Origin: Candidatus Poribacteria bacterium
GTDB lineage: Bacteria; Poribacteria; WGA-4E; WGA-3G
Direction of reading: 5' to 3'
NCBI GenBank assembly: GCA_965242965.1
Contig: OZ251518.1
Span: forward strand, 32,001-96,000
DNA: 64,000 nt
A model generated the notes under the pieces. It did not search any database. It had not been told where the DNA came from and worked only from the letters and a program-made list of their open reading frames with translations. The translations under genes and the position numbers were made by a program. Positions 1-53,534 of this stretch are shown piece by piece. The first letter of the stretch is position 1, and each line of letters starts with the position of its first letter.

Positions 1-295
1 GGCCTGTCCCCCGCGATCTACCGACCGAAACGAGAACCGTCCGCAGCCCGGAGGCCACGGACGTTTGCTGTTAAGACCGAGGCACGGCGAGGGACAGGCC
101 CTCGCCCTACGGTTCGGGGGCACGGTTTGGATAGCCACGAAAGAAAAAGCATATTAAGGTCCTACAGACCTTAGCCACCTTCGCGTCGCATTGCTCTATA
201 GACATTACGGTCTTACGGACCTAAAGAGACGTTTTATCGTGCTAAAACAAACATGCATCGAGACCAGGAGGTCTCTCCTACTCTAAAGAGACGTT
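1..295. repeat. Mosaic cluster of REP-like palindromes (families A, B, D)
   Basis: Contains GGCCTGTCCCCCGCG, GGCGAGGGACAGGCCCTCGCCCTACG, AGGTCCTACAGACCT and TCGAGACCAGGAGGTCTCTCCTAC units that recur throughout the window. Confidence 0.9.
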
Positions 296-31428: not shown

Positions 31429-33366
31429 TTGATGTTGTTAGAGAAAATCGACACCCCAGCTGCCCTCAAAACGCTTGACACCGCGGCGTTGAAGACGCTC
31501 GCCGAGGAGATGCGCGCGTATTTGCTAACCGTGCTTTCCGAACATCCTGGGCATTTCGCTCCCAACTTCGGCACCGTCGAATTGGCGATTGCGCTGCATA
31601 CCGTCTTTGATACGCCGCATGATAAAATTGTGTGGGACATCGGCCATCAGGCGTATCCGCATAAACTGCTAACGGGCCGCCGCGATGCCTTCCCTACACT
31701 TCGCCAATTGGACGGCATCAGCGGCTTCCTCAGCCGCGCCGAAAGCGAATACGATGTGTTCGGTGCCGGGCATTCTAGCACCTCTATCGCCGCCGCACTC
31801 GGCATCGCTGCCGCCCGCGATTTAACCAACGCCAATTACAAAGTCGTCGCTGTTATCGGGGACGGAGGCTTGACTGGCGGCATGGCACTCGAAGGGTTAA
31901 ACGCTGCAGGCTCACTCGGCACACAAAAAAGTCAGACGAACCTGCTCGTTATCCTCAACGACAACCAGATGTCCATCTCCGCCACCGTCGGCGCACTCGG
32001 ACACCACCTGAAGGCGCATTTGGAAACTTCCAAGCATTTTCATACGCTGACGAGCTCACCGAACTACAACTTTCTGCGTTCCGGTGTGAAGGAACTGATG
32101 AACCACATCTCACCGGAAGCGAAAGCTCTGGCGAGTAAGGTGGAGGCTGCCTTGAAACCGGGCACGCTGTTTGAAGAACTCGGCTTCCGATACTTCGGCC
32201 CGATTGACGGGAACGATTTAGACGCGCTGATACCCGTTCTTACCGGTATCCGACAACTCTCAGGGCCGATACTGCTCCATCTCTCGACAGAGAAGGGACG
32301 CGGATATCCCCCCGCTGAAGCAGACCCGGTTGGATTTTACAGCGTCAGCGGGCCCTTTAATCTTAAAACTGGTAAAACCACACGGCAGAAATCCCGAATC
32401 CCGACGTATACCGAGGTATTCAGCCAGACGTTGACACAATTGGCACAACGCGATGCGCGTATTGTCGGCGTGACAGCGGCAATGCCCGGCGGAACGGGAC
32501 TTGATACATTCGCCGATGCATTTCCGAACCGATGCTTTGACTTGGGATTGGCAGAGCAGTGCGCTGTCACCTTCGCCGCTGGACTCGCCACTGAAGGATT
32601 GCGGCCCGTCGTCGCCATCTACTCTACCTTCCTCCAACGCGCGTATGACCAGGTGTTACACGACGTTTGTATCCAAAACCTGCCGGTTATCTTCGCTCTG
32701 GATAGAGCCGGTCTCGTCGGTGCGGATGGCCCCACACATCACGGCGTGTTCGATCTTGCCTATCTCCGTTCCATCCCGAATCTGGTGGTGATGGCCCCGA
32801 AGGACGAGAACGAATTGCAACATGCATTGAAAACGGCGTTGGAGTATCAAGACGGCCCCATCGCCTTCCGTTATCCGCGTGGCACGGGTGTCGGCGTGAA
32901 AATGGAAGAGATGCCCAAGGCTTTCCCCATCGGCAGGGGTGAACTCGTCAGAGAAGGGAATGATATCCTCATCGTCGCCGTTGGCAACCGAGTGCATCCC
33001 GCACTGGCCGCCGCGAAAACCTTGGAGGATAACGGTATTTCGGTTGCCGTTATCAATCCGCGGTTTGTCAAACCGTTGGATACCGGCCTCATCCTGCCGA
33101 TGGCGGAACGCATCGGCAAAGTCATCACCGTTGAAGATGGCGTAGTGATGGGCGGCTTCGGCAGCGCAGTGCTAGAAGCACTCTCGGATGCAGGCATGCC
33201 CGGCGTGCAGGTGAAACGTCTCGGCATTCCCGATGCATTTGTTGAGCACGGCGACACGTCCCAACTCTACGCCTTATGCGGCTGTGACGAGAACGGCATT
33301 ATCCGCGCTGTGGAAACTATGATGCAGACACCGTCACCTGCCCGGCAAATCAGGAGCCCGAGATGA
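31429..33366 (+). CDS. dxs: 1-deoxy-D-xylulose-5-phosphate synthase
   Basis: WDIGHQAYPHK, GHSSTS, GDG..TGG, NDN and DRAGLVG.DG.TH motifs. Confidence 0.96.
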   Translation: MMLLEKIDTPAALKTLDTAALKTLAEEMRAYLLTVLSEHPGHFAPNFGTVELAIALHTVFDTPHDKIVWDIGHQAYPHKLLTGRRDAFPTLRQLDGISGFLSRAESEYDVFGAGHSSTSIAAALGIAAARDLTNANYKVVAVIGDGGLTGGMALEGLNAAGSLGTQKSQTNLLVILNDNQMSISATVGALGHHLKAHLETSKHFHTLTSSPNYNFLRSGVKELMNHISPEAKALASKVEAALKPGTLFEELGFRYFGPIDGNDLDALIPVLTGIRQLSGPILLHLSTEKGRGYPPAEADPVGFYSVSGPFNLKTGKTTRQKSRIPTYTEVFSQTLTQLAQRDARIVGVTAAMPGGTGLDTFADAFPNRCFDLGLAEQCAVTFAAGLATEGLRPVVAIYSTFLQRAYDQVLHDVCIQNLPVIFALDRAGLVGADGPTHHGVFDLAYLRSIPNLVVMAPKDENELQHALKTALEYQDGPIAFRYPRGTGVGVKMEEMPKAFPIGRGELVREGNDILIVAVGNRVHPALAAAKTLEDNGISVAVINPRFVKPLDTGLILPMAERIGKVITVEDGVVMGGFGSAVLEALSDAGMPGVQVKRLGIPDAFVEHGDTSQLYALCGCDENGIIRAVETMMQTPSPARQIRSPR

Positions 33367-45916: not shown

Positions 45917-47533
45917 CTACTTCCGAATGACCATCTTCCGGGTTGCGGAGAAATCATCCGCGGTCAACGTATAGAAATAAACACCGCTGGCAACAGGCTC
46001 ACCCGCCGCATTCCGGCCATCCCAATAGGCTGCGCGAGAACGGTTTTGATAGATGCCCGCCGGGACCTGACCGAGGTCGAGTGCGCGGACGAGTTTTCCG
46101 TCTGCCGAATAAATAGAGACTTTCACCCCAGCGGGTTTTGCCAACTGATACGGTATCCATGTCTCTGGGTTAAACGGATTTGGATAATTCGCAAGCAGGA
46201 CTGTCTCTTTCGGCTGTGCTTCGACGCGCGTTAATGCCGCTAAGAGCCGTTCCAGCGCGGCGATTCCCGCCGGGTCTGCGTTCGCTGCCTTTGCATCACG
46301 GAGCCACCGCTGCACATCTGCTGCCTGTAGGCTCCCGGTCTTGATGTTTGCCTGTGTTAATGCAGGCGCACCTGCAGCATCCACCGCCTCTGCCACAGCA
46401 ATGAAATCGTCAACATCAACCTTCCCATCGTTATTAACATCCGCCCTCCGGTTTGCACCGGCACCGACGGTTTTCCCGTAGTTTCTGGCCACCTCTACAA
46501 GATCATTGACGTTGACTTTACCATTCCCCGTGACATCCACTGTGAGCAATCGCCACAAACCGATGTCTTGCTGAAGAGGCACCTTGCCCGCGAGAATCTG
46601 CCCATTCGGTGAAAACGCTAAGCCCGCCGACGACCCCCCTCCGTATCCCGTGAGCGCGGTTTTGAGGGCACCGGTGTTCGGATTCCAAAGGCGGAGGGTG
46701 CCGTGCGTTGCCCCCCTCTGGCGACCCGCACTCACCAACGTCTCCCCGTTCGGATGGAACGCTAACGAAATAATATATTGGCGAGGTACCTGCAGCACGT
46801 GCCGGGTGGTGTGCGTATCGGGATTCCAGAGGCGGATGGTTTTGTCGTGACTTCCACTCGCGAGGATGCGGCCATCCGGACTCCACGCCACGCAGTTGAC
46901 CGACTCCGTATGCCCCCGCAGCACGGCGAAGTTGATGCCGTTGCTTGGATTCCACAACCGCACCGTGCCATCATTACTCGCACTCGCTAGCACCCTACCA
47001 TCTGGACTCCACGCGACCGATCTGACAGCTTCCGTGTGCCCCCGCAGTGTGCGCACATGCCGCAGGTTGTTGATGTCACCCACATCCCAGATACGGATAG
47101 TCTTGTCACCACTCGCACTCGCCAGCACATAACTGTTCAGCTTGAAGGCGAGGCTGATGACAACGTCTGTATGCCCCGCCACCGAGCCGCGCCAGTCGCC
47201 ATCGGAGCTATAGCGCATCCGAATCTTATGATTATCTACCCCACCACCATAGGCGATGAAGTGGGGGTTCTGCGAAGGGAGCGCAACGGCGTAGACCTCA
47301 TTCCCGACATCCTGTTCCCAGCGTTGTGTGCCGGTGGTGACATTCCAGGCGCGGAGAGTGTTGTCATAACTCCCACTGATTAGCGTCCCGTTATCCTTGA
47401 AGACTACCACCCTGACATAATGCGTGTGTCCCGTCAAGGTATCGGTGTGGACGTATTGTTGTGCGGTGGCGGTCGTCACTGCCATCGCTGCTATTAACAC
47501 TAGTGTTAAGGTTAAAACCGTTAATTTTCTCAT
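45917..47533 (-). CDS. Secreted WD40 protein with dockerin-like repeats and a FlgD/T9SS-like C-terminal domain
   Basis: Signal peptide; GH...V..VAWSPDG...WD repeats; DV.G.G.V...DL; LLANYPNPFNPETWIPY...WDGRN..GE.VASGVYFY. Confidence 0.9.
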   Translation of the reverse strand: MRKLTVLTLTLVLIAAMAVTTATAQQYVHTDTLTGHTHYVRVVVFKDNGTLISGSYDNTLRAWNVTTGTQRWEQDVGNEVYAVALPSQNPHFIAYGGGVDNHKIRMRYSSDGDWRGSVAGHTDVVISLAFKLNSYVLASASGDKTIRIWDVGDINNLRHVRTLRGHTEAVRSVAWSPDGRVLASASNDGTVRLWNPSNGINFAVLRGHTESVNCVAWSPDGRILASGSHDKTIRLWNPDTHTTRHVLQVPRQYIISLAFHPNGETLVSAGRQRGATHGTLRLWNPNTGALKTALTGYGGGSSAGLAFSPNGQILAGKVPLQQDIGLWRLLTVDVTGNGKVNVNDLVEVARNYGKTVGAGANRRADVNNDGKVDVDDFIAVAEAVDAAGAPALTQANIKTGSLQAADVQRWLRDAKAANADPAGIAALERLLAALTRVEAQPKETVLLANYPNPFNPETWIPYQLAKPAGVKVSIYSADGKLVRALDLGQVPAGIYQNRSRAAYWDGRNAAGEPVASGVYFYTLTADDFSATRKMVIRK

Positions 47534-47577
47534 GATAAAAAAATTCCTTTGCCCGCCATTAATAGCGAGCATTCGTA

Positions 47578-48072
47578 TCAATCCGCTTCCCCCAGATGCC
47601 GAATCTCAAAAGCGTAAACGCGCATCTTCACGTAACCGCTCTTCTTATACTCGGCGTGACTCTCACATCTGATGAGAAGCCCAGTAAACTCGTATTTGTG
47701 CCCCCGTTCGTAGGTCTCGGGGGGATTCGGTACATCTAGCGGATACACGTCAACCACATTTCCTTCTAGCGTTATCTTCCGAACCTGTTTCGTTCGGAAG
47801 GAGGTCTCAACAAGTCCAGCCACACCTGTGAAACGGACAAACCGCCCCACATACTGGTCCCAGTTCTGCTGCAGCTCTCGGAAGCGCATCGGCTTGATCC
47901 AAACGTGCTCCTCACCCCGTCCCCGTGCAAAGAGCCTCACCTGAACGGGAACCCCATTCAAAGTGCTTGAAAACCCCTGAGAGAAATGAACAATCGGCTC
48001 TCTTGCAACGAGGATTGCACTAACGCTTAAAACCATCAGCGCAATGACGATGCAAAATTTTCTGCAGGTCAT
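47578..48072 (-). CDS. Hypothetical exported protein
   Basis: 164-aa ORF with signal peptide and GAGG RBS, upstream of the WD40 gene. Confidence 0.6.
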   Translation of the reverse strand: MTCRKFCIVIALMVLSVSAILVAREPIVHFSQGFSSTLNGVPVQVRLFARGRGEEHVWIKPMRFRELQQNWDQYVGRFVRFTGVAGLVETSFRTKQVRKITLEGNVVDVYPLDVPNPPETYERGHKYEFTGLLIRCESHAEYKKSGYVKMRVYAFEIRHLGEAD

Positions 48073-48135
48073 TCAAAATCCTCTTTCGTTTGTGATAAAA
48101 ACCGCGTTAAACCGCGCGGTTTTCGTCTATTCCGT

Positions 48136-48317
48136 TGTCTGAATCAGGATTTCCAAGATTCAAGGATTTCCAAGATGAGGGATTGCTTGTCCTCGTAAAT
48201 CCCTCTGGCGCGTTAGGAATGATCTCCATATCGCAATTTCTACGAAGGTCAGCCTTGGCGAAGCGATGCGCTCCTAATCCTGTAAATCCTATCATCTTGT
48301 GAATCCTGATTCAGACA
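48136..48317. repeat. Element bounded by inverted 9-mer arrays
   Basis: TGTCTGAATCAGGATT...AATCCTGATTCAGACA 16-bp inverted ends. Confidence 0.75.
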
Positions 48318-48467
48318 GTTAATTGCAATTCGTCTCCAGACAACGTGTCTGGGGTTGCGGCGGGAGGTTGCAGTCGCCTTTCGGCGATGCAGTGCCTCCC
48401 GTAAACGTGGAAACATTCCAAAATTCACGCGCCCGGTGTCAAACACTAGGCGATACAGGAAGAGAGT

Positions 48468-49106
48468 TCAGTCCTGGCCCCTTGAGAGATCCATGGAATT
48501 AAATCCACGAATCTTGATATCGTCATCCCCCTTGAACTGGACATACTTCTCTTTATAGAGTTTGAATAGGCACAGTTGAATAGGGATAACCTCTGAAGCG
48601 TTGATTGGACCGAGCACTCCTGCCTTCTCTAAGGCAGCAACAACAAGTTCGGAACAGAAGAATTTCTCAAAATCCTCCCGATTCGCAGTGGGGCCTAAGG
48701 CATCAAGGATACCATCTATGGCAGCTTTGACGGCTTGGCCGTAATCGTAGGGTTTCCCCTCTTGTTCAAGCAAAAAATCAATGAGTTTTTGCTTATCCAA
48801 TTTGCAGCGGGCTTCGTCACTCAAAGGCAACCACCAGAGTTCGCCTTCATAAGCCTCTTCAAGCCGGCTCAGTCGGCTGAATTGAACTCCTTCAGCGGTA
48901 GCCTCTGCAACTCGGACGCGCCTATTGGGTTGTGCGGTATCATCTACCACGAGTTCGCTGTGGAGGACAATGCCGACATGTGACACATTACTGTTCGTAA
49001 ACAACTTTATCGCGTCGGAGACAGGCTTTTTGCCGGCAAAAGCGATGATATCTCCGGGTTGCATCTTATCTCTGATACTCGCGTACGTACCTCGTTTCCA
49101 GGACAC
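48468..49106 (-). CDS. Permuted papain-like amidase (YiiX/YaeF, NlpC/P60 superfamily)
   Basis: QPGDII.F, SHVGI, GKPYD and FFCSELV motifs; GTG start after GAGGAG. Confidence 0.85.
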   Translation of the reverse strand: MSWKRGTYASIRDKMQPGDIIAFAGKKPVSDAIKLFTNSNVSHVGIVLHSELVVDDTAQPNRRVRVAEATAEGVQFSRLSRLEEAYEGELWWLPLSDEARCKLDKQKLIDFLLEQEGKPYDYGQAVKAAIDGILDALGPTANREDFEKFFCSELVVAALEKAGVLGPINASEVIPIQLCLFKLYKEKYVQFKGDDDIKIRGFNSMDLSRGQD

Positions 49107-49550
49107 TTTTTTCTCCTCTCTTGTGCAGAACGAACCGAATTGAGTCAGCGACACGATGGGCAGCATTGCCCATCGCAGCGTCGCTGGTTTCAACGGTGTT
49201 CGTTAGACAGATTCTCGCCGCGTCTCGCCGCTGTCAGGAGCAAGACACGGTATCGGGTTTAAAAACAGTCCCACTCGGCGTTAACTGACATAGTCTCAAG
49301 TGGCTTTCCGTTGAGGGTAGTTGAAATGTCCTCGGACAGACTCACTCAAATTTCGTCAGCGTCCACTACGGTGGAAGACAATCAATGTTTGCGCTATGCC
49401 ACAAAAATTTGGCTGCGGCGGAGGGGACCAACGCTGTTCTGCCCCCGCGTTCGCCGCAACTCTCGCACGGTCCCAACCCCACCGGGCCGCCGAAAAATGC
49501 TCGCGGCGTAGGGTGAAGTGACGCGAGACCGTAGGTTGGTGGCCTTCAAC

Positions 49551-49964
49551 CTAGTCTTCAGCGAGGGAGTTTGTCAAAGCTAATTCCACTTTGACCCAGT
49601 CTCCCCCGAATGGTTCCCTATTATACAACGAGATCGTGCGGCTGACAGGGTGACCTCCTCGAGGAACTCTGAAACTGATAGTCTTATCATCCGCAAGATC
49701 TTCAGTATTTTCAGACGTTCCCTCATAAAATCGCACTGCGACCTCCATATTAACATGGCCATCGTCAACTAAGCGTCCGGTCATGTCAACTTCAACGCGG
49801 CACTCATCACCCCATCTGACGTGTGGGATATCAAAGTTATCAATAGGGTTGCTACCATCAAAAATTCTTTCTCTCTTATAGGCGCGATGAACGGGCACAT
49901 CTTTTTTGTACCATTCATCATCGATGCCTGTGATAATAATCGTGGCAAAAACGCGTCTTGCCAT
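49551..49964 (-). CDS. Hypothetical protein (137 aa, beta-rich)
   Basis: AAGGAG RBS and a clean ORF; family not recognised. Confidence 0.65.
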   Translation of the reverse strand: MARRVFATIIITGIDDEWYKKDVPVHRAYKRERIFDGSNPIDNFDIPHVRWGDECRVEVDMTGRLVDDGHVNMEVAVRFYEGTSENTEDLADDKTISFRVPRGGHPVSRTISLYNREPFGGDWVKVELALTNSLAED

Positions 49965-50345
49965 TTTATGGCTCCTTCTTTAATTTGTTTGGTAGAACAC
50001 AGATGTCCCACCTACTTATGGGTGCTTAATTTGAGAAACTAAGCAGGATTCAGGTTAAAGACACCTGCCACTATCCGGACACTATTCCAACACTACCATC
50101 CCCTCCATTTGCCGCCATCAAGAATAGACAGCGACAGAAATCCGCACCACCAAACGCGGCGCACGGAAATCTCGTATGGACAAACAGGGAGAATAACAAG
50201 GGAAACGGGTGCAACGGGAAATATGGCAGGGAAATGCATCGGGCCAGTCCCGATGCAACGAAAGTAACCCGCCACGCAAGAATGCGTGCGGGGTCAAAGA
50301 CAACAGGACGACAAAAGTCGCCGCTGTCAAGTGAATAAGATTTGC

Positions 50346-50519
50346 TTAACGCCTGTGGGTGTCGGGGGGGGTCGAGCCTCCCCTCTGGACATTAAGCCGA
50401 ACGGGAACTCGTGACGGCGCGACAACGGGCATAGACGCACGGCAAACGTGCATCTCTCGGTGCCCAAGCAGGTCTACGGTGACCTCGGTAGCAATGGAAA
50501 AATCAATTCGCTGGTTCAC
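50346..50519 (-). CDS. Putative small ORF/leader peptide (57 aa)
   Basis: GAGGA RBS plus GTG, directly downstream of the tandem promoters. Confidence 0.3.
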   Translation of the reverse strand: MNQRIDFSIATEVTVDLLGHREMHVCRASMPVVAPSRVPVRLNVQRGGSTPPDTHRR

Positions 50520-50591
50520 GGTATCGTTCCTCTGTTCGGTTTCGGTTTCGCGGTGGCGCATTTTTTCGCGCGTATCACCGCGTTTGCATTA

Positions 50592-50766
50592 ATGATACAC
50601 GAACATGCAATAAATGTCAAACATTTTTTTGCGAAAAATCGTGGAAATGTTGACAATTAACCACATTCTACATGAATTTCGGTTTTTTGTCAACGTTTTT
50701 CTGCGGAAAATCGTGAAAAATGTTTAAAACTGATTTTATTTTAGCAAATGTCACGTTTTTTGTCAA
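50592..50766 (-). promoter_or_regulatory. Three tandem sigma70 promoters, 73-bp period
   Basis: TTGACA-17-TAAAAT (50766-50738), TTGACA-17-TAGAAT (50693-50665) and TTGACA-17-TATCAT (50620-50592). Confidence 0.82.
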
Positions 50767-50794
50767 GGTTATTGCGCGAAAAAAAACGCTGCTG

Positions 50795-51480
50795 CTACCG
50801 TAGCGTGGGGGCCTGTCCCCCGCGATGCTAATTGTCTGAAGCAGGATTTCCAAGATTAGCAGGATTTGCAGGATGAAGAGTTGTTCGCCTTGACACGTCT
50901 ATGGGGACATCAAAGAATGCTCTTCAGGTCCGTAGGACCTGCATGTCTATAGAAAAGTAGATCTGCCACCGTTTTCAAGGTCCGTTAGGACCTTAATGGA
51001 AATGGCACAAGCGAGTCAAAGCACATTAAGGTCCTACAGACCTTAGGTTCATCGTGATGCGAGGTGCTATAGACATTAAGGTCTTACAGACCTAAAGAAA
51101 CATTTCGGCGCAATACCCGCCTAATCCTGAAAATCTTGAAAATCTTGTAAATCCTGCTCCAGACCGAGGCACGGCGAGGGACAGGCCCTCGCCCTACGGT
51201 GGCAGGAGAATTTTGGCACGGCGAGGGAAACCCGCTCGCATGCGCGTGTGGCATGCGAGGGCCCAAGCCCTACGGTTCGACGGCGCGGTTTGGATAGCCA
51301 CGAAATAAAAAGCATATTAAGGTCCTACAGACCTTAGCCATCTTCGCATCACATTGCTCTATAGACATTAAGGTCCTACAGCCCTAAAGAGACGTTTCGG
51401 CGCGATACCCTCCTAATCTTGCTAATCTTGTAAATCTTGGAAATCCTGCTCATATCTTGCCTAATCTTGTAAATCCTACT
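50795..51480. repeat. Large REP and 9-mer mosaic cluster
   Basis: Shares a ~300-bp segment with 45394-45690 and another segment with 80-230. Confidence 0.9.
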
Positions 51481-51485
51481 CGGTG

Positions 51486-52415
51486 TTATTCCCGCTCTGG
51501 ATACGGCTTTCCTAATGCAGCAGGTGCCTCCGCGCGGCCGACGAAGCCCGCCAGCACCGCTAAGCAAAGCACGTAAGGCAACATCAATAGCACTTGATGT
51601 GGAATGCCCCAGCCGAAGGCCTGAAATCGGACATCCAGCGCGCCGCCGAGTCCAAAAAGCAACGCCGCCCCACACGCTTTCACCGGATGCCACTTCCCAA
51701 AGATGACTATCGCTAACGCAATAAACCCGCGTCCTACCGTCATGTTCGGCGTGAAATAGGGGACATCCGCCAGCGAGAGGTACCCACCGCCGATGCCTGC
51801 CATCGCACCGGCAAATAAGAGGCACGCCGTGCGCAGCAGCGGGACGTTCGTGCCAACCGCCGCTACTGCCTCTGGATGCTCGCCGCACGCACGAATGTGA
51901 AGCCCCGGGCGTGTGTGGTAGATGAAAAAGGTGACGCACGGCACCAGCAGGAACGTTAGAAACACTAAGATATTATGCGAAAAGAATGCCCGTCCAAAAA
52001 AAGGTATCTGCGAAAGGAACGGGATTGCTAAAGGCTGGAACGAGGGCACCCGCAGCGCGCTGCCTGTCACGCCGAAGAGGCGTTGATAAAGCACTTCGGT
52101 TAAGCCCAAGGCGAGCAGTGTGATGGCAGTGCCGATAATCACCTGGTCTCCTCGCAATCGGATGGCGAAGAGCGCGAAGAGCGCGGCGGTGCAAACACCA
52201 GCGATGCCAGCCAGCAGTAGCCCACACCCCGGCGCGAGGAACGGAACCTGCGCCGTGTAGAAAGAACCTACCATGCCGAAAAACGCACCCATCAGCATCA
52301 TGCCTTCAATGCCGATGTTGATGATGCCTGCGCGTTGCGATACGACTTCGCCTAACGCGGCGAGCAGCAGCGGTGTCGCGCCTCGAACCGTTGCGGAGAA
52401 CGTCTCTTCAAACAT
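51486..52415 (-). CDS. ABC transporter permease (nucleoside/simple-sugar type)
   Basis: GIINIGIEG, RACGE.P.A and GRGFIALA motifs. Confidence 0.92.
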   Translation of the reverse strand: MFEETFSATVRGATPLLLAALGEVVSQRAGIINIGIEGMMLMGAFFGMVGSFYTAQVPFLAPGCGLLLAGIAGVCTAALFALFAIRLRGDQVIIGTAITLLALGLTEVLYQRLFGVTGSALRVPSFQPLAIPFLSQIPFFGRAFFSHNILVFLTFLLVPCVTFFIYHTRPGLHIRACGEHPEAVAAVGTNVPLLRTACLLFAGAMAGIGGGYLSLADVPYFTPNMTVGRGFIALAIVIFGKWHPVKACGAALLFGLGGALDVRFQAFGWGIPHQVLLMLPYVLCLAVLAGFVGRAEAPAALGKPYPERE

Positions 52416-52451
52416 TTTTACCTCACATGCATCGAGACCGGGAGGTCTCGC

Positions 52452-53534
52452 CTACCTGCAATTTTCTGTTTCCTCCGGTAGGCGCGGTTTGAAACCGCGC
52501 TTTCGGAAAGTGTTGTCCTTCAAGAATTTCGCGGAACCGTAACCGAGCACAGCCAGCAGAATCGTCGCCTGCATGACAAGCGTTACCTTATCCGAAATGC
52601 CGACACCGCGTTGCATCGCATACGAACCTGTCGTGAGCGCGCCGAAAAGGAGTGCCGCCGCCATTGTGACTAGCGGATGCAACTTCGCTAGCAACGCCAC
52701 CGCAATCGCCGTGTAGCCGTAGCCGGGTGAGAAGTTGAGGAATAATCGGCGCGTCAGAGCCATTAGTTCTATCGCACCGCCGAGTCCTGCTAAGACACCG
52801 CTGATAAAAAAGACGCGGAACGTGTTATGCACAATGGAGATACCCGCCGCCTCCGCTGCCGCTGCCCCCGCGCCAACAGCACGCAGTTGATATCCAAATG
52901 TCGTCCGAAAAAGGACGAATGTGAGAATAATCGCCAAAACAATCGCGATGACGATGCCGAGATGGATGCGGTGAGGTGGAAACAGCCTCGGCAGAAATAC
53001 CCACTCGACGAGCCTGTCACTTTGCGGGCCACGCTGCGATACCTCCTGTAATGGCCCGCTGTCTACCATGAAACTGACGAGGTAGATGGCAACGTAGTTG
53101 AGCATAATCGTGCTAATGACTTCGTTTACACCGCGCGTTATCTTGAGGAACGCGGGAATCAGGGCCCAGATGCCACCTGCCAGTGCTGCGAAACAGAGAC
53201 ACAACGGCACGGCTATCCACGGTGTCGCGGGAAAAAACGGCGCGAGTTTCGTGCCGAACCATGTCGCCGCTAACGCGCCCATCAAAAACTGTCCCTCCGC
53301 GCCGATGTTCCATATCCCGCACCGGAAAGCGACAGCGACAGAAAGCCCTGCCATCAAAAACGGCGTGCTTTTCACCAGCGTCTCCCCTAATTTCCTGCCG
53401 TTGCCGAACGCGCCGCCGACTGCCGCCGCGTAAGCCTCTAGCGGATTATAGCCGCACACGAGCATGATGATGCCGTTCGTCGCAAACGCGCTGATGAGAA
53501 TGAGCGCGGGCATCCCGAGCCAACGTTTTATCAC
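52452..53534 (-). CDS. ABC transporter permease (nucleoside/simple-sugar type)
   Basis: NIGAEGQ, NEVISTIMLNY and GYGYTAIAVALL motifs. Confidence 0.92.
   Translation of the reverse strand: MIKRWLGMPALILISAFATNGIIMLVCGYNPLEAYAAAVGGAFGNGRKLGETLVKSTPFLMAGLSVAVAFRCGIWNIGAEGQFLMGALAATWFGTKLAPFFPATPWIAVPLCLCFAALAGGIWALIPAFLKITRGVNEVISTIMLNYVAIYLVSFMVDSGPLQEVSQRGPQSDRLVEWVFLPRLFPPHRIHLGIVIAIVLAIILTFVLFRTTFGYQLRAVGAGAAAAEAAGISIVHNTFRVFFISGVLAGLGGAIELMALTRRLFLNFSPGYGYTAIAVALLAKLHPLVTMAAALLFGALTTGSYAMQRGVGISDKVTLVMQATILLAVLGYGSAKFLKDNTFRKRGFKPRLPEETENCR

Follow-up and report, generated by a model that had tools for sequence, protein, structure and literature searches.

Introduction

For the pil1 locus of Streptococcus gallolyticus, it was shown experimentally that a repeat within a leader open reading frame (ORF) determines which frame is read. 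In the short state, translation finishes 39 bp ahead of a terminator and expression is low; with out-of-frame repeat lengths, longer peptides are made, and their translation keeps the hairpin from forming (Danne et al. 2014, PMC3894217). In this study, we describe a leader of similar layout in the genome of Candidatus Poribacteria bacterium (assembly GCA_965242965.1). It lies on the minus strand of a 64,000-nucleotide stretch of contig OZ251518.1 (forward-strand positions 32,001 to 96,000), which is called the window; coordinates are those of the window unless a contig prefix is given. The element starts with three promoter-like sites, contains a small ORF with a run of eight C, continues into a terminator-like hairpin, and precedes a gene for a 137-aa protein. 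By analogy with pil1, and with moderate confidence, we read it as a leader-ORF phase-variation attenuator in which a homopolymer serves as the repeat. If this reading holds, it bears on how sponge symbionts such as Poribacteria, which cannot be cultured, regulate their many eukaryote-like and surface proteins.

In its anatomy, the locus corresponds to pil1 feature by feature. It shares with pil1 and pil3 a promoter, a small leader ORF with a slippage-prone repeat, and a downstream stem-loop of terminator form; at the sequence level, we found here a leader ORF led by a Shine-Dalgarno (SD) sequence, a slippage-prone repeat, and a downstream stem-loop. In addition, the short frame stops before the terminator in both cases (39 bp in pil1 and about 50 nt here), longer frames run into the hairpin, the genes behind it code for surface proteins, and most cells (pil1) or copies (here) have the short frame, which would be that of low expression here as in pil1. 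However, the repeat is a C7-C13 homopolymer here and consists of GCAGA pentamers in pil1. The poribacterial leader is much longer, with several helices (H1-H8) and a pyrimidine-rich tract, and it belongs to a portable cassette of about 18 copies with stacked promoters, within a wider design of 43 loci per genome. Furthermore, the host is an uncultivated sponge symbiont of another phylum, and the system is known here from sequence alone.

Homopolymeric-tract contingency loci are found in Neisseria, Haemophilus, and Bordetella. The poly-G genes of Campylobacter jejuni are loci of the same type (PMC11955535). The leader resembles them in its G or C runs of 8-13 nt, in the many loci per genome, in the frame-dependent stops just after the tract, and in the bias to surface or accessory genes. 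However, the tract of contingency loci usually lies in the gene itself or in a promoter spacer. In our locus, a separate ORF upstream of the gene carries the tract, which would exert its effect by way of a terminator, and just 2 of the 43 runs linked to promoters (see below) are fused to long genes. In Haemophilus influenzae hmw1A, a heptamer repeat lies in the untranslated 5′ leader, which is processed by RNase III (PMC12721329). In both systems, the repeat forms part of a structured 5′ leader and has a G-rich pairing partner (predicted here), and structure matters in the phase variation of hmw1A. Unlike in hmw1A, the run is inside an ORF here, and by eye the G-rich partner is not evident in most distant genera.

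A further group of relatives by design is represented by the mgtCBR leader of Salmonella, which carries the proline-codon ORF mgtP (PMC3641672), and EF-P is reported to keep transcription and translation coupled (PMC5021804). The mgtCBR and mgtA leaders resemble our locus in their length and in a short ORF that has proline codons in succession, and they have alternative stem-loops that control transcription. In contrast, the mgt leaders sense physiology and are single loci, and they are not known to involve frame switching.

The Leader ORF and Its C Run

The features that carry the argument are as follows (each with its basis in brackets).

50346-50519, minus strand: leader ORF of 57 codons with GTG start at 50519 and TAA stop at 50348-50346 (frame analysis)
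50528-50532, minus strand: SD sequence GAGGA, 8 nt before the leader-ORF start (GGA invariant, (G/A)AGGA in 29 of 29 copies)
50364-50371, minus strand: pure C8 run (ACC CCC CCC, Thr-Pro-Pro), 5 codons before the stop (sequence)
50377-50383, minus strand: GGGGAGG, pairing with the C run in the predicted fold, helices 15-16 (fold and alignment)
50299-50328, minus strand: hairpin H6, helices 17-18 (alignment and fold; part of covariance model R1)
50257-50293, minus strand: hairpin H7 (50293-50268) with U-rich tail UUACUUUCGUU, terminator-like (fold and alignment)
50235-50257, minus strand: hairpin H8 (UGCAUCGGG..CCCGAUGCA), helix 20 (97% paired in the alignment; distant-genus alignments)

We aligned 29 copies of the leader from this genome and its relatives (alignment A2). 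The leader frame was open for 52-65 codons in 27 of the 29 copies, and the other two frames were open over this length in 1 and 0 copies. The start falls in one alignment column (ATG in five copies and GTG in most), and an SD sequence and a start were present in all 29. Furthermore, the six indels before the C run were all multiples of three (3, 3, 15, 3, 3, and 9 nt); in one copy (L027), a 1-nt insertion breaks the frame before the run. When the observed substitutions were placed at random, the joint probability that eight diverged lineages stay free of stops was about 0.001; since the lineages are treated as independent, this somewhat overstates the evidence. The preliminary description of this DNA had called the 57-aa ORF doubtful, but the conserved SD sequence and start, the open frame, and the in-frame indels indicate that it is probably translated. 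In the predicted fold, the SD sequence pairs with GUUCC inside the ORF; this helix never varies and so holds no covariation information.

The encoded peptide gave a different picture. The ratio of nonsynonymous to synonymous substitution rates (dN/dS), which had been suggested as a check, was 0.80 in the leader frame versus 0.94 and 0.64 in the other two frames. The variable columns were distributed over the three codon positions as 28, 29, and 35, with no enrichment at third positions, and no Pfam family was found for the peptide. Since frame, start, and indel lengths are kept but dN/dS is unremarkable, it is the reading of the frame that is conserved and not the peptide. A functional, highly expressed small protein, which had been one of the options offered earlier, is therefore not supported: its dN/dS is no better than that of the other frames. 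In the alignment, the kept features of the ORF are the reading frame, the start site, and the C run. A cis-regulatory leader whose small ORF is translated is, in our opinion, highly probable.

In the long ORFs of this genome, CCC makes up 21% of the proline codons and CCG 49%; thus, codon preference does not explain a pure C run. We also counted runs in the whole genome, and there were 281, 48, and 34 C runs of 6, 7, and 8 nt and 303, 58, and 44 G runs of these lengths. The flat step from 7 to 8 suggests that runs of at least 8 are kept for a reason.

The position of the run relative to the hairpins is regular. In this copy, the short frame stops about 50 nt before H7 and 78 nt before its end. 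In 25 of 27 loci, the frame given by the DNA ended 0-8 codons past the run and 57-98 nt upstream of the 3′ end of H7, and 22 of the 27 had exactly one frame open across H6-H8. With one C fewer, the frame of the present copy would close at a UGA at the base of H6; with one C more, it would be read for 96 further codons, to the TAG at 50073-50071. The frame through H6-H8 is thus reached by one extra C or by two fewer. Among the full copies of this genome, 16 of 17 were in the short state, and the seventeenth is L027, whose frame is stopped before the run. In relatives, the run length varied from C7 to C13.

The same layout is common in this genome. There were 118 C or G runs of at least 8 nt, of which 43 lie 114-302 nt behind a same-strand promoter-like site scoring 11/12 in the consensus scan, where about 3 were expected. 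The run was at codon 22-60 of an SD-led ORF in 38 of these 43 cases, and the 38 ORFs comprised 29 in the short state, 7 in the long state, and 2 that are fused to genes longer than 1000 codons. In addition, a terminator-like hairpin followed 20-190 nt after the run in 26 of the 43, versus 5 of the remaining 75 runs and 25 of 1000 positions taken at random. The two fused C8 runs, at C1:906659 (+) and C1:4262531 (-), lie 29 and 44 codons into frames that go on for 1076 and 1514 codons, and this is the layout of a classical phase-variable gene.

RNA Structure of the Leader

The leader spans 621 nt between about 50585 and the ATG at 49964. The single-sequence fold has -233 kcal/mol (z = -6.18 versus shuffled sequences); the structured leader of about 620 nt that had been described earlier was recovered. 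Both hairpins named at that time are present, CGCGGTG..CACCGCG at 50582-50549 and TGCATCGGG..CCCGATGCA at 50257-50235. Further elements of the leader are listed below.

50549-50582, minus strand: H1, the 5′-terminal hairpin, with arms CGCGGUG..CGCG and CGCG..CACCGCG around the loop (fold and alignment)
50170-50234, minus strand: pyrimidine-rich, A-poor stretch with no stops in three frames (composition and frame scan)
50143-50163, minus strand: further hairpin (UGCGCCGCG UUUGG UGGUGCG) (sequence scan; variants in several copies)
50051-50076, minus strand: 3′ module GGAUAGUGGCAGGUGUCUUUAACCUG (GGAUAGUGGCAGGUGUYUUUAACC), followed by hairpins (copy alignment, by eye)

We mapped the single-sequence fold onto the 29-copy alignment, which gave 104 pairs. 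In these, 90.0% of the cells were paired, versus 35-45% when the partners were slid; 18 pairs were changed on both sides, versus 5-14 in the slid structures; and the covariation score was 0.141, versus at most 0.057, and was reached by none of 500 shuffles. The best-supported helices were H1, the helix closing on the hairpin of the G-rich segment and the C run, H6, H7, and H8. Pairing in H1 (helices 2-3) was 92-94%, and three of its pairs had changed on both sides; one pair of H6 changed from AU to GC in seven sequences. H7 has a stem of about 10 bp and -16.7 kcal/mol here, and in all 29 copies it has about -16 kcal/mol with 6-8 U within the next 10 nt. By its sequence, H7 is a candidate intrinsic terminator, having the form of one.

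The stretch after H8 had median contents of 39% T, 30% C, 20% G, and 10% A over the 27 loci. Locus-unique sequence begins just downstream of the hairpin at 50143-50163, and long contigs from public sequencing runs terminate at 50141-50146. About half of the copies carry the 3′ module, which lies a little upstream of the ribosome-binding site (RBS) of the putatively gated gene, and a variable hairpin comes after the module.

A scan of 48000-53000 against Rfam 15, another check proposed at the outset, returned only two chance-level matches (E = 0.4 and 0.91), both outside the leader, and no tRNA or tmRNA was found in the window. We found no convincing alternative (antiterminator) pairing in the single-sequence and consensus folds. 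A pairing of the G-rich segment with the 5′ arm of H7, looked for by eye, was rejected on two grounds: a ribosome positioned on the C run would cover the G run, and by eye the G run is not evident in most distant genera.

This structure might belong to a cis-regulatory RNA that binds a ligand or a protein, or to a separate multi-copy small RNA that ends at H7, with the ORF being incidental. Conserved helices with covariation and strong stability would fit such an element, and the terminator-like H7 could close a transcript of about 330 nt. However, this explanation leaves aside the ORF, which is open in 27 of 29 copies with conserved SD sequence and start and in-frame indels; moreover, in distant genera the ORF and the C run persist where the sequence of the 5′ half is no longer conserved. 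There is no Rfam match, and we identified no conserved unpaired pocket, which was not examined in depth. We thus consider such an RNA very unlikely. The stand-alone abundant noncoding RNA that the preliminary description had considered fares no better, as every copy runs on into a co-directional gene; its other option, a leader, agrees with this finding for all full copies.

Copies of the Cassette and Their Downstream Genes

We used positions 51300-49300 as a query in a BlastN search against the own genome (5.70 Mb, two contigs). There were 18 copies of at least 300 nt, including this one and a truncated one, with identities of 69-92%, and the recurring stretch reaches from 50826 to about 50180. 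Each full copy is followed by a different co-directional ORF, which starts 53-329 nt after H8, the last conserved hairpin. A truncated cassette (three promoters and the first ~180 nt of the leader) lies just ahead of the window, at G000:C1:31640-32017, and window positions 1-17 touch it. About 2 kb from it, at C1:29229-29747, there is a diverged copy of the leader (peptide profile hidden Markov model (HMM), E = 8.9e-16; R1, 29.9 bits).

The proteins encoded downstream, 17 from this genome and 10 from relatives, were scanned with Pfam. They include dockerin, cohesin/FlgD-Ig/type IX secretion system (T9SS)-tail, TPR, FRG+TPR, LRR, WD40, and lamin-tail-domain proteins. Further ones are a tyrosinase, a trypsin-like protease, a patatin, and laminin-G-like, Big_5, long coiled-coil, and GTPase proteins; 9 of the 27 had no Pfam family. 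Judged by these sequences, the genes behind the cassettes are mostly secreted or eukaryote-like.

In the phylogenetic tree of the 29 copies, 16 of the 17 copies of this genome formed one clade (support 100/99). In addition, paralogues were up to 92% identical, versus 84% for the probable orthologue in a congener. Thus, the cassette was amplified or evolved in concert within the genome.

The same data raise the possibility of a selfish or neutral repeat, that is, a nonautonomous mobile element or a gene-conversion repeat with outward promoters and no regulatory role. The single clade apart from the copies of two congeners and the high similarity of the paralogues would be expected for such a repeat, and other repeats abound in the genome (the stretch at 50830-51300 alone matches hundreds of places). 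However, every full copy points into a downstream gene, the frame and the start codon are maintained, and an ORF of about 50 codons, a pure C run, and three hairpins survive across genera beyond the range in which the sequences can be aligned. Furthermore, the cassette has no transposase-like ORF, and inspection of its borders by eye, which was not a systematic search, showed no transposase, terminal inverted repeats, or target duplications. A purely selfish or neutral repeat is quite unlikely in our view.

Distribution among Related Genomes

BlastN found the cassette core in 4 of 41 related genomes, namely the own genome, two congeners, and one genome of another genus. To reach further, a covariance model of H6-H8 (R1) was used. 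It matched 22 places in this genome and 41 of the 112 genomes of the family, in all 6 of its genera; there was no match in 47 genomes of three sister families of the order, which also served as a control for weak matches. As to conservation, which had been named earlier as a check, the region is present in many copies, is kept in relatives, and has a covarying structure.

Eight weak R1 matches (40-48 bits) from other genera were inspected. In four distant-genus alignments, H7 and H8 carried compensatory changes, and GGGCUAUUUUUGU was conserved. In seven of the eight, a C7-C13 run lies 30-65 nt upstream of the R1 match, inside an ORF of 45-65 codons, and a promoter-like site was seen in four of them. 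The leader-peptide HMM gave no significant match on the distant-genus loci, so homology of the 5′ half beyond genus-level relatives is argued from architecture only.

A pattern of a C run plus the H7 tail had 25 matches in genomes of named species, and all 25 were in Candidatus Poribacteria metagenome-assembled genomes (MAGs). Their run lengths were C8 in 11, C11 in 8, C10 in 2, and C7, C9, C12, and C13 in one each; among the SD-led ORFs, 17 of 18 were in the short state. In metagenomes, a pattern with the exact flanks of the C run of this subfamily had no match.

Relatives of the leader peptide, predicted by gene callers in many public assemblies, comprised 82 clusters of 31-100 aa and 24 longer ones (106 in total). 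After the proline run, 73 clusters stopped within 6 residues, 5 stopped at 7-12, and 22 read on for more than 12; 6 could not be classified, three of which had lost the run and read on. The proline run had length 1 in 10 clusters, 2 in 71, 3 in 17, and 4 and 5 in one each. All three frames of one downstream sequence occur: ..PPLIFR (stop), ..PPTYFPLRVF (stop), and ..PLFSVK.. (long). In eight metagenome loci of another lineage, a C8 copy stops four codons after the run, and a C9 copy (metagenome record L054) reads through the hairpins and ends at a TGA that overlaps the ATG of the main gene (ATGA). This overlap hints at translational coupling in that lineage and is no general feature of the copies in our genome. 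The L054 stop is about 100 nt after the H7/H8 match. C8, C9, and C11 occur among metagenome loci that are 90-95% identical.

A Possible Phase-Variation Attenuator

The observed anatomy, conservation, ORF maintenance, structure, multi-copy spread, and variants in three frames can be combined into the following model. The cassette consists, in order, of a hairpin of the repetitive extragenic palindromic (REP) type with a T run, one to four promoter modules, and the structured leader. It would be transcribed from the promoters and the small ORF translated. In the frame given by the DNA, the ribosome would halt 5 codons past the run, and H7 would form and end or weaken transcription. With one C more, or two fewer, the ribosome would follow the single frame through H6-H8 and melt the terminator, and the downstream gene would be expressed; this would be the ON frame. 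With one C fewer, a second short frame would end at the UGA at the foot of H6. If the run length changes fast enough, the downstream gene would be switched on and off stochastically and heritably, and one genome would contain many such gates before accessory, secreted, and eukaryote-like genes.

Several observations weigh against this model. First, we saw no variation of run length within a single population or clone: the two near-identical metagenome pairs (99.2% and 100%) have equal runs. Contigs of four public runs contained no indel at the C run at 10% or more, and this result is uninformative on switching as contigs drop rare variants. Second, the long frame is not preferentially open beyond H8: it was the longest of the three in only 9 of 22 loci. 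After H8, a median of 143-166 nt is free of stops in each of the three frames (166 for the long frame versus 143), because the stretch is A-poor. The long frame is thus not specially kept, and a design to reach the main start codon is unsupported. Third, the terminator tail is interrupted (UUACUUUCGUU in this copy). Fourth, about 50 nt, including H6, separate the short stop from H7, and the mechanistic difference between the short state and simple termination is an inference. Finally, run lengths are biased to one frame class (C8 and C11, 19 of the 25 matches in named MAGs; 16 of the 17 full copies of this genome in the short state), and this bias also fits selection for a fixed frame.

The last point speaks for the main rival, a non-heritable translational sensor, that is, a proline-codon attenuator like mgtP/mgtL in which the run length is fixed in the DNA. 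Ribosomes would slow or shift at the CCC codons depending on Pro-tRNA, EF-P, or tRNA modification, and the position of the paused ribosome would decide whether H7 or Rho ends transcription. Besides the frame bias, it could account for a run that always encodes at least Pro-Pro 0-8 codons before the stop (Pro-Pro at 5 codons in this copy), for the common frame-keeping PP and PPP variants, for an otherwise unconstrained peptide, and for the pyrimidine-rich untranslated stretch after the leader ORF; the mgtCBR leader with mgtP (PMC3641672) and EF-P coupling (PMC5021804) are analogues. However, the homopolymer and the frame-shifted variants argue against it. Proline stalling needs no homopolymer, and the preferred codon CCG (49%) never interrupts the run. 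To our knowledge, the proline codons of mgtP and mgtL do not form a pure homopolymer. In addition, 22 of the 106 natural variants are frame-shifted to long forms, runs of 7-13 occur, and two runs are fused in frame to long genes, which is the classical layout of switching at the DNA level. Taken together, a sensor with a fixed run appears unlikely.

A wider version of the phase-variation attenuator can be put forward only tentatively, and we consider it somewhat doubtful. In this version, Poribacteria have a genome-wide contingency system with dozens of accessory genes, each behind a poly-C leader gate, and one subfamily of gates is a portable cassette. If this is true, the contingency set would include eukaryote-like repeat proteins, dockerin/cohesin proteins, T9SS-tailed proteins, proteases, and a tyrosinase, and in relatives patatin and lamin-tail proteins; the gate subfamily would spread to new genes and be homogenised within the genome. 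The part of the host-interaction repertoire on display would then differ at random from one symbiont cell to another, as bet-hedging or immune evasion. This strategy would be undescribed for sponge symbionts, and a whole regulatory device that acts as a mobile module would be a rare case. If the narrower reading as an attenuator holds, genes whose expression is decided stochastically, cell by cell, would be marked by a recognisable DNA device (about 18 copies of close similarity, and about 43 loci when the wider design is counted), which would give a list of candidate host-interaction genes from sequence, with the C-run length as a simple read-out in existing sponge metagenomes. It would also extend the pil1-type attenuator, so far demonstrated in a Streptococcus, to a distant phylum, to homopolymer tracts, and to a portable promoter-leader cassette. 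We found no publication on such a device in Poribacteria in the main literature, supplements being outside the scope of the search.

Promoters and the 5′ Edge of the Cassette

Upstream of the leader, the following features were found.

50738-50766, minus strand: P1, promoter-like site TTGACA-17-TAAAAT with TG before the -10 box (consensus scan 11/12; kept in paralogues)
50665-50693, minus strand: P2, promoter-like site TTGACA-17-TAGAAT (consensus scan 11/12; kept in paralogues)
50592-50620, minus strand: P3, promoter-like site TTGACA-17-TATCAT (11/12; in all aligned copies, other species included)
50779-50826, minus strand: REP-like GC hairpin (CGCGGGGGACAGGCCCCC..) and then a T8 run, the 5′ edge of the cassette (sequence; copy alignment)

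The preliminary description had reported three stacked promoters with a repeated spacer. The consensus scan agrees on three sites of the sigma-70 type on the minus strand, each scoring 11/12, with -35 boxes at 50766, 50693, and 50620, and the spacing of 73 bp is exact at this locus. As to the repeated spacer, the upstream word CACGATTTT(C/T)CGC (minus strand; GCG(A/G)AAAATCGTG on the plus strand), followed by an A-rich stretch, is present before P2 and P3, and the 73-nt units are just 72% alike on average. Tandem Repeats Finder reported no 73-nt period because the promoter units are too diverged. A transcript from P3 would start near 50585.

The genome-wide scan gave 657 sites of at least 11/12, and thus three in 150 nt on one strand are unexpected by chance. 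Thirteen of the 18 cassette copies have at least three promoter sites, and three have two. The spacings among copies were 72-75 or 103-104 nt, and 81-82 nt in the single copy with four promoters. Since they vary, the 73-nt period reflects repeated promoter modules and is not special to this locus. Both 73 and 103 nt are near whole multiples of the helical turn, from which we draw no conclusion. A pair of modules of the P1/P2 type, 102 nt apart and with the same upstream word and spacer, is at G000:C1:2676329-2676460 (+), and BlastN did not link it to any copy of the leader. The promoter module may serve other leaders too.

Tandem promoters are well known from the rRNA operons of Escherichia coli (rrn P1-P2), and the rRNA promoter array of our genome has five sites (C1:3550335-3550738). 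The array of P1-P3 is like the rRNA arrays in that near-consensus promoters follow one another at distances of 70-125 nt and have A/T-rich flanks upstream. However, the rRNA array of this genome has another repeat unit, and P1-P3 belong to a cassette of accessory genes.

The block of GC hairpin and T run opens 15 of the 18 copies, and 50826 is where the match with the other copies starts. Above 50830, the flank is made up of different short repeats that occur hundreds of times in the genome. Those in 50830-51300 are GC hairpins tagged with CTACGG/CCGTAG, AGGTCYGTAGGACCT hairpins, and 9-nt tandems of the AATCTTGAA type; each family matches tens to hundreds of places, and most intergenic DNA is built alike.

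The Downstream Gene and Its Neighbors

The gene behind the leader is the following.

49551-49976, minus strand: putatively gated gene for a protein of 137 aa, ORF 49964-49551, RBS AGGAG at 49976-49972 (ORF list)

This gene had been noted before as an unknown one, and no Pfam family was found for its product. In a collection of 5.8 billion proteins, it has 8 homologue clusters (37-95% identical), all unnamed. The predicted model is all-beta (pLDDT 93), and a fold search of this model against solved structures gave no meaningful match (best TM-score 0.38). Secretin structures also appeared in the search and were rejected, with a root-mean-square deviation above 13 Å.

The apparent operon continues with genes for a C92-type peptidase, an unknown protein, and a WD40 protein. 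The last of these genes (45917-47581, minus strand) encodes a signal peptide and at least 5 WD40 repeats; its C-terminal part has, by eye, a dockerin-like segment and a T9SS-type tail, neither of which is among the Pfam matches listed. Similar WD40 proteins are encoded behind several other copies of the cassette.

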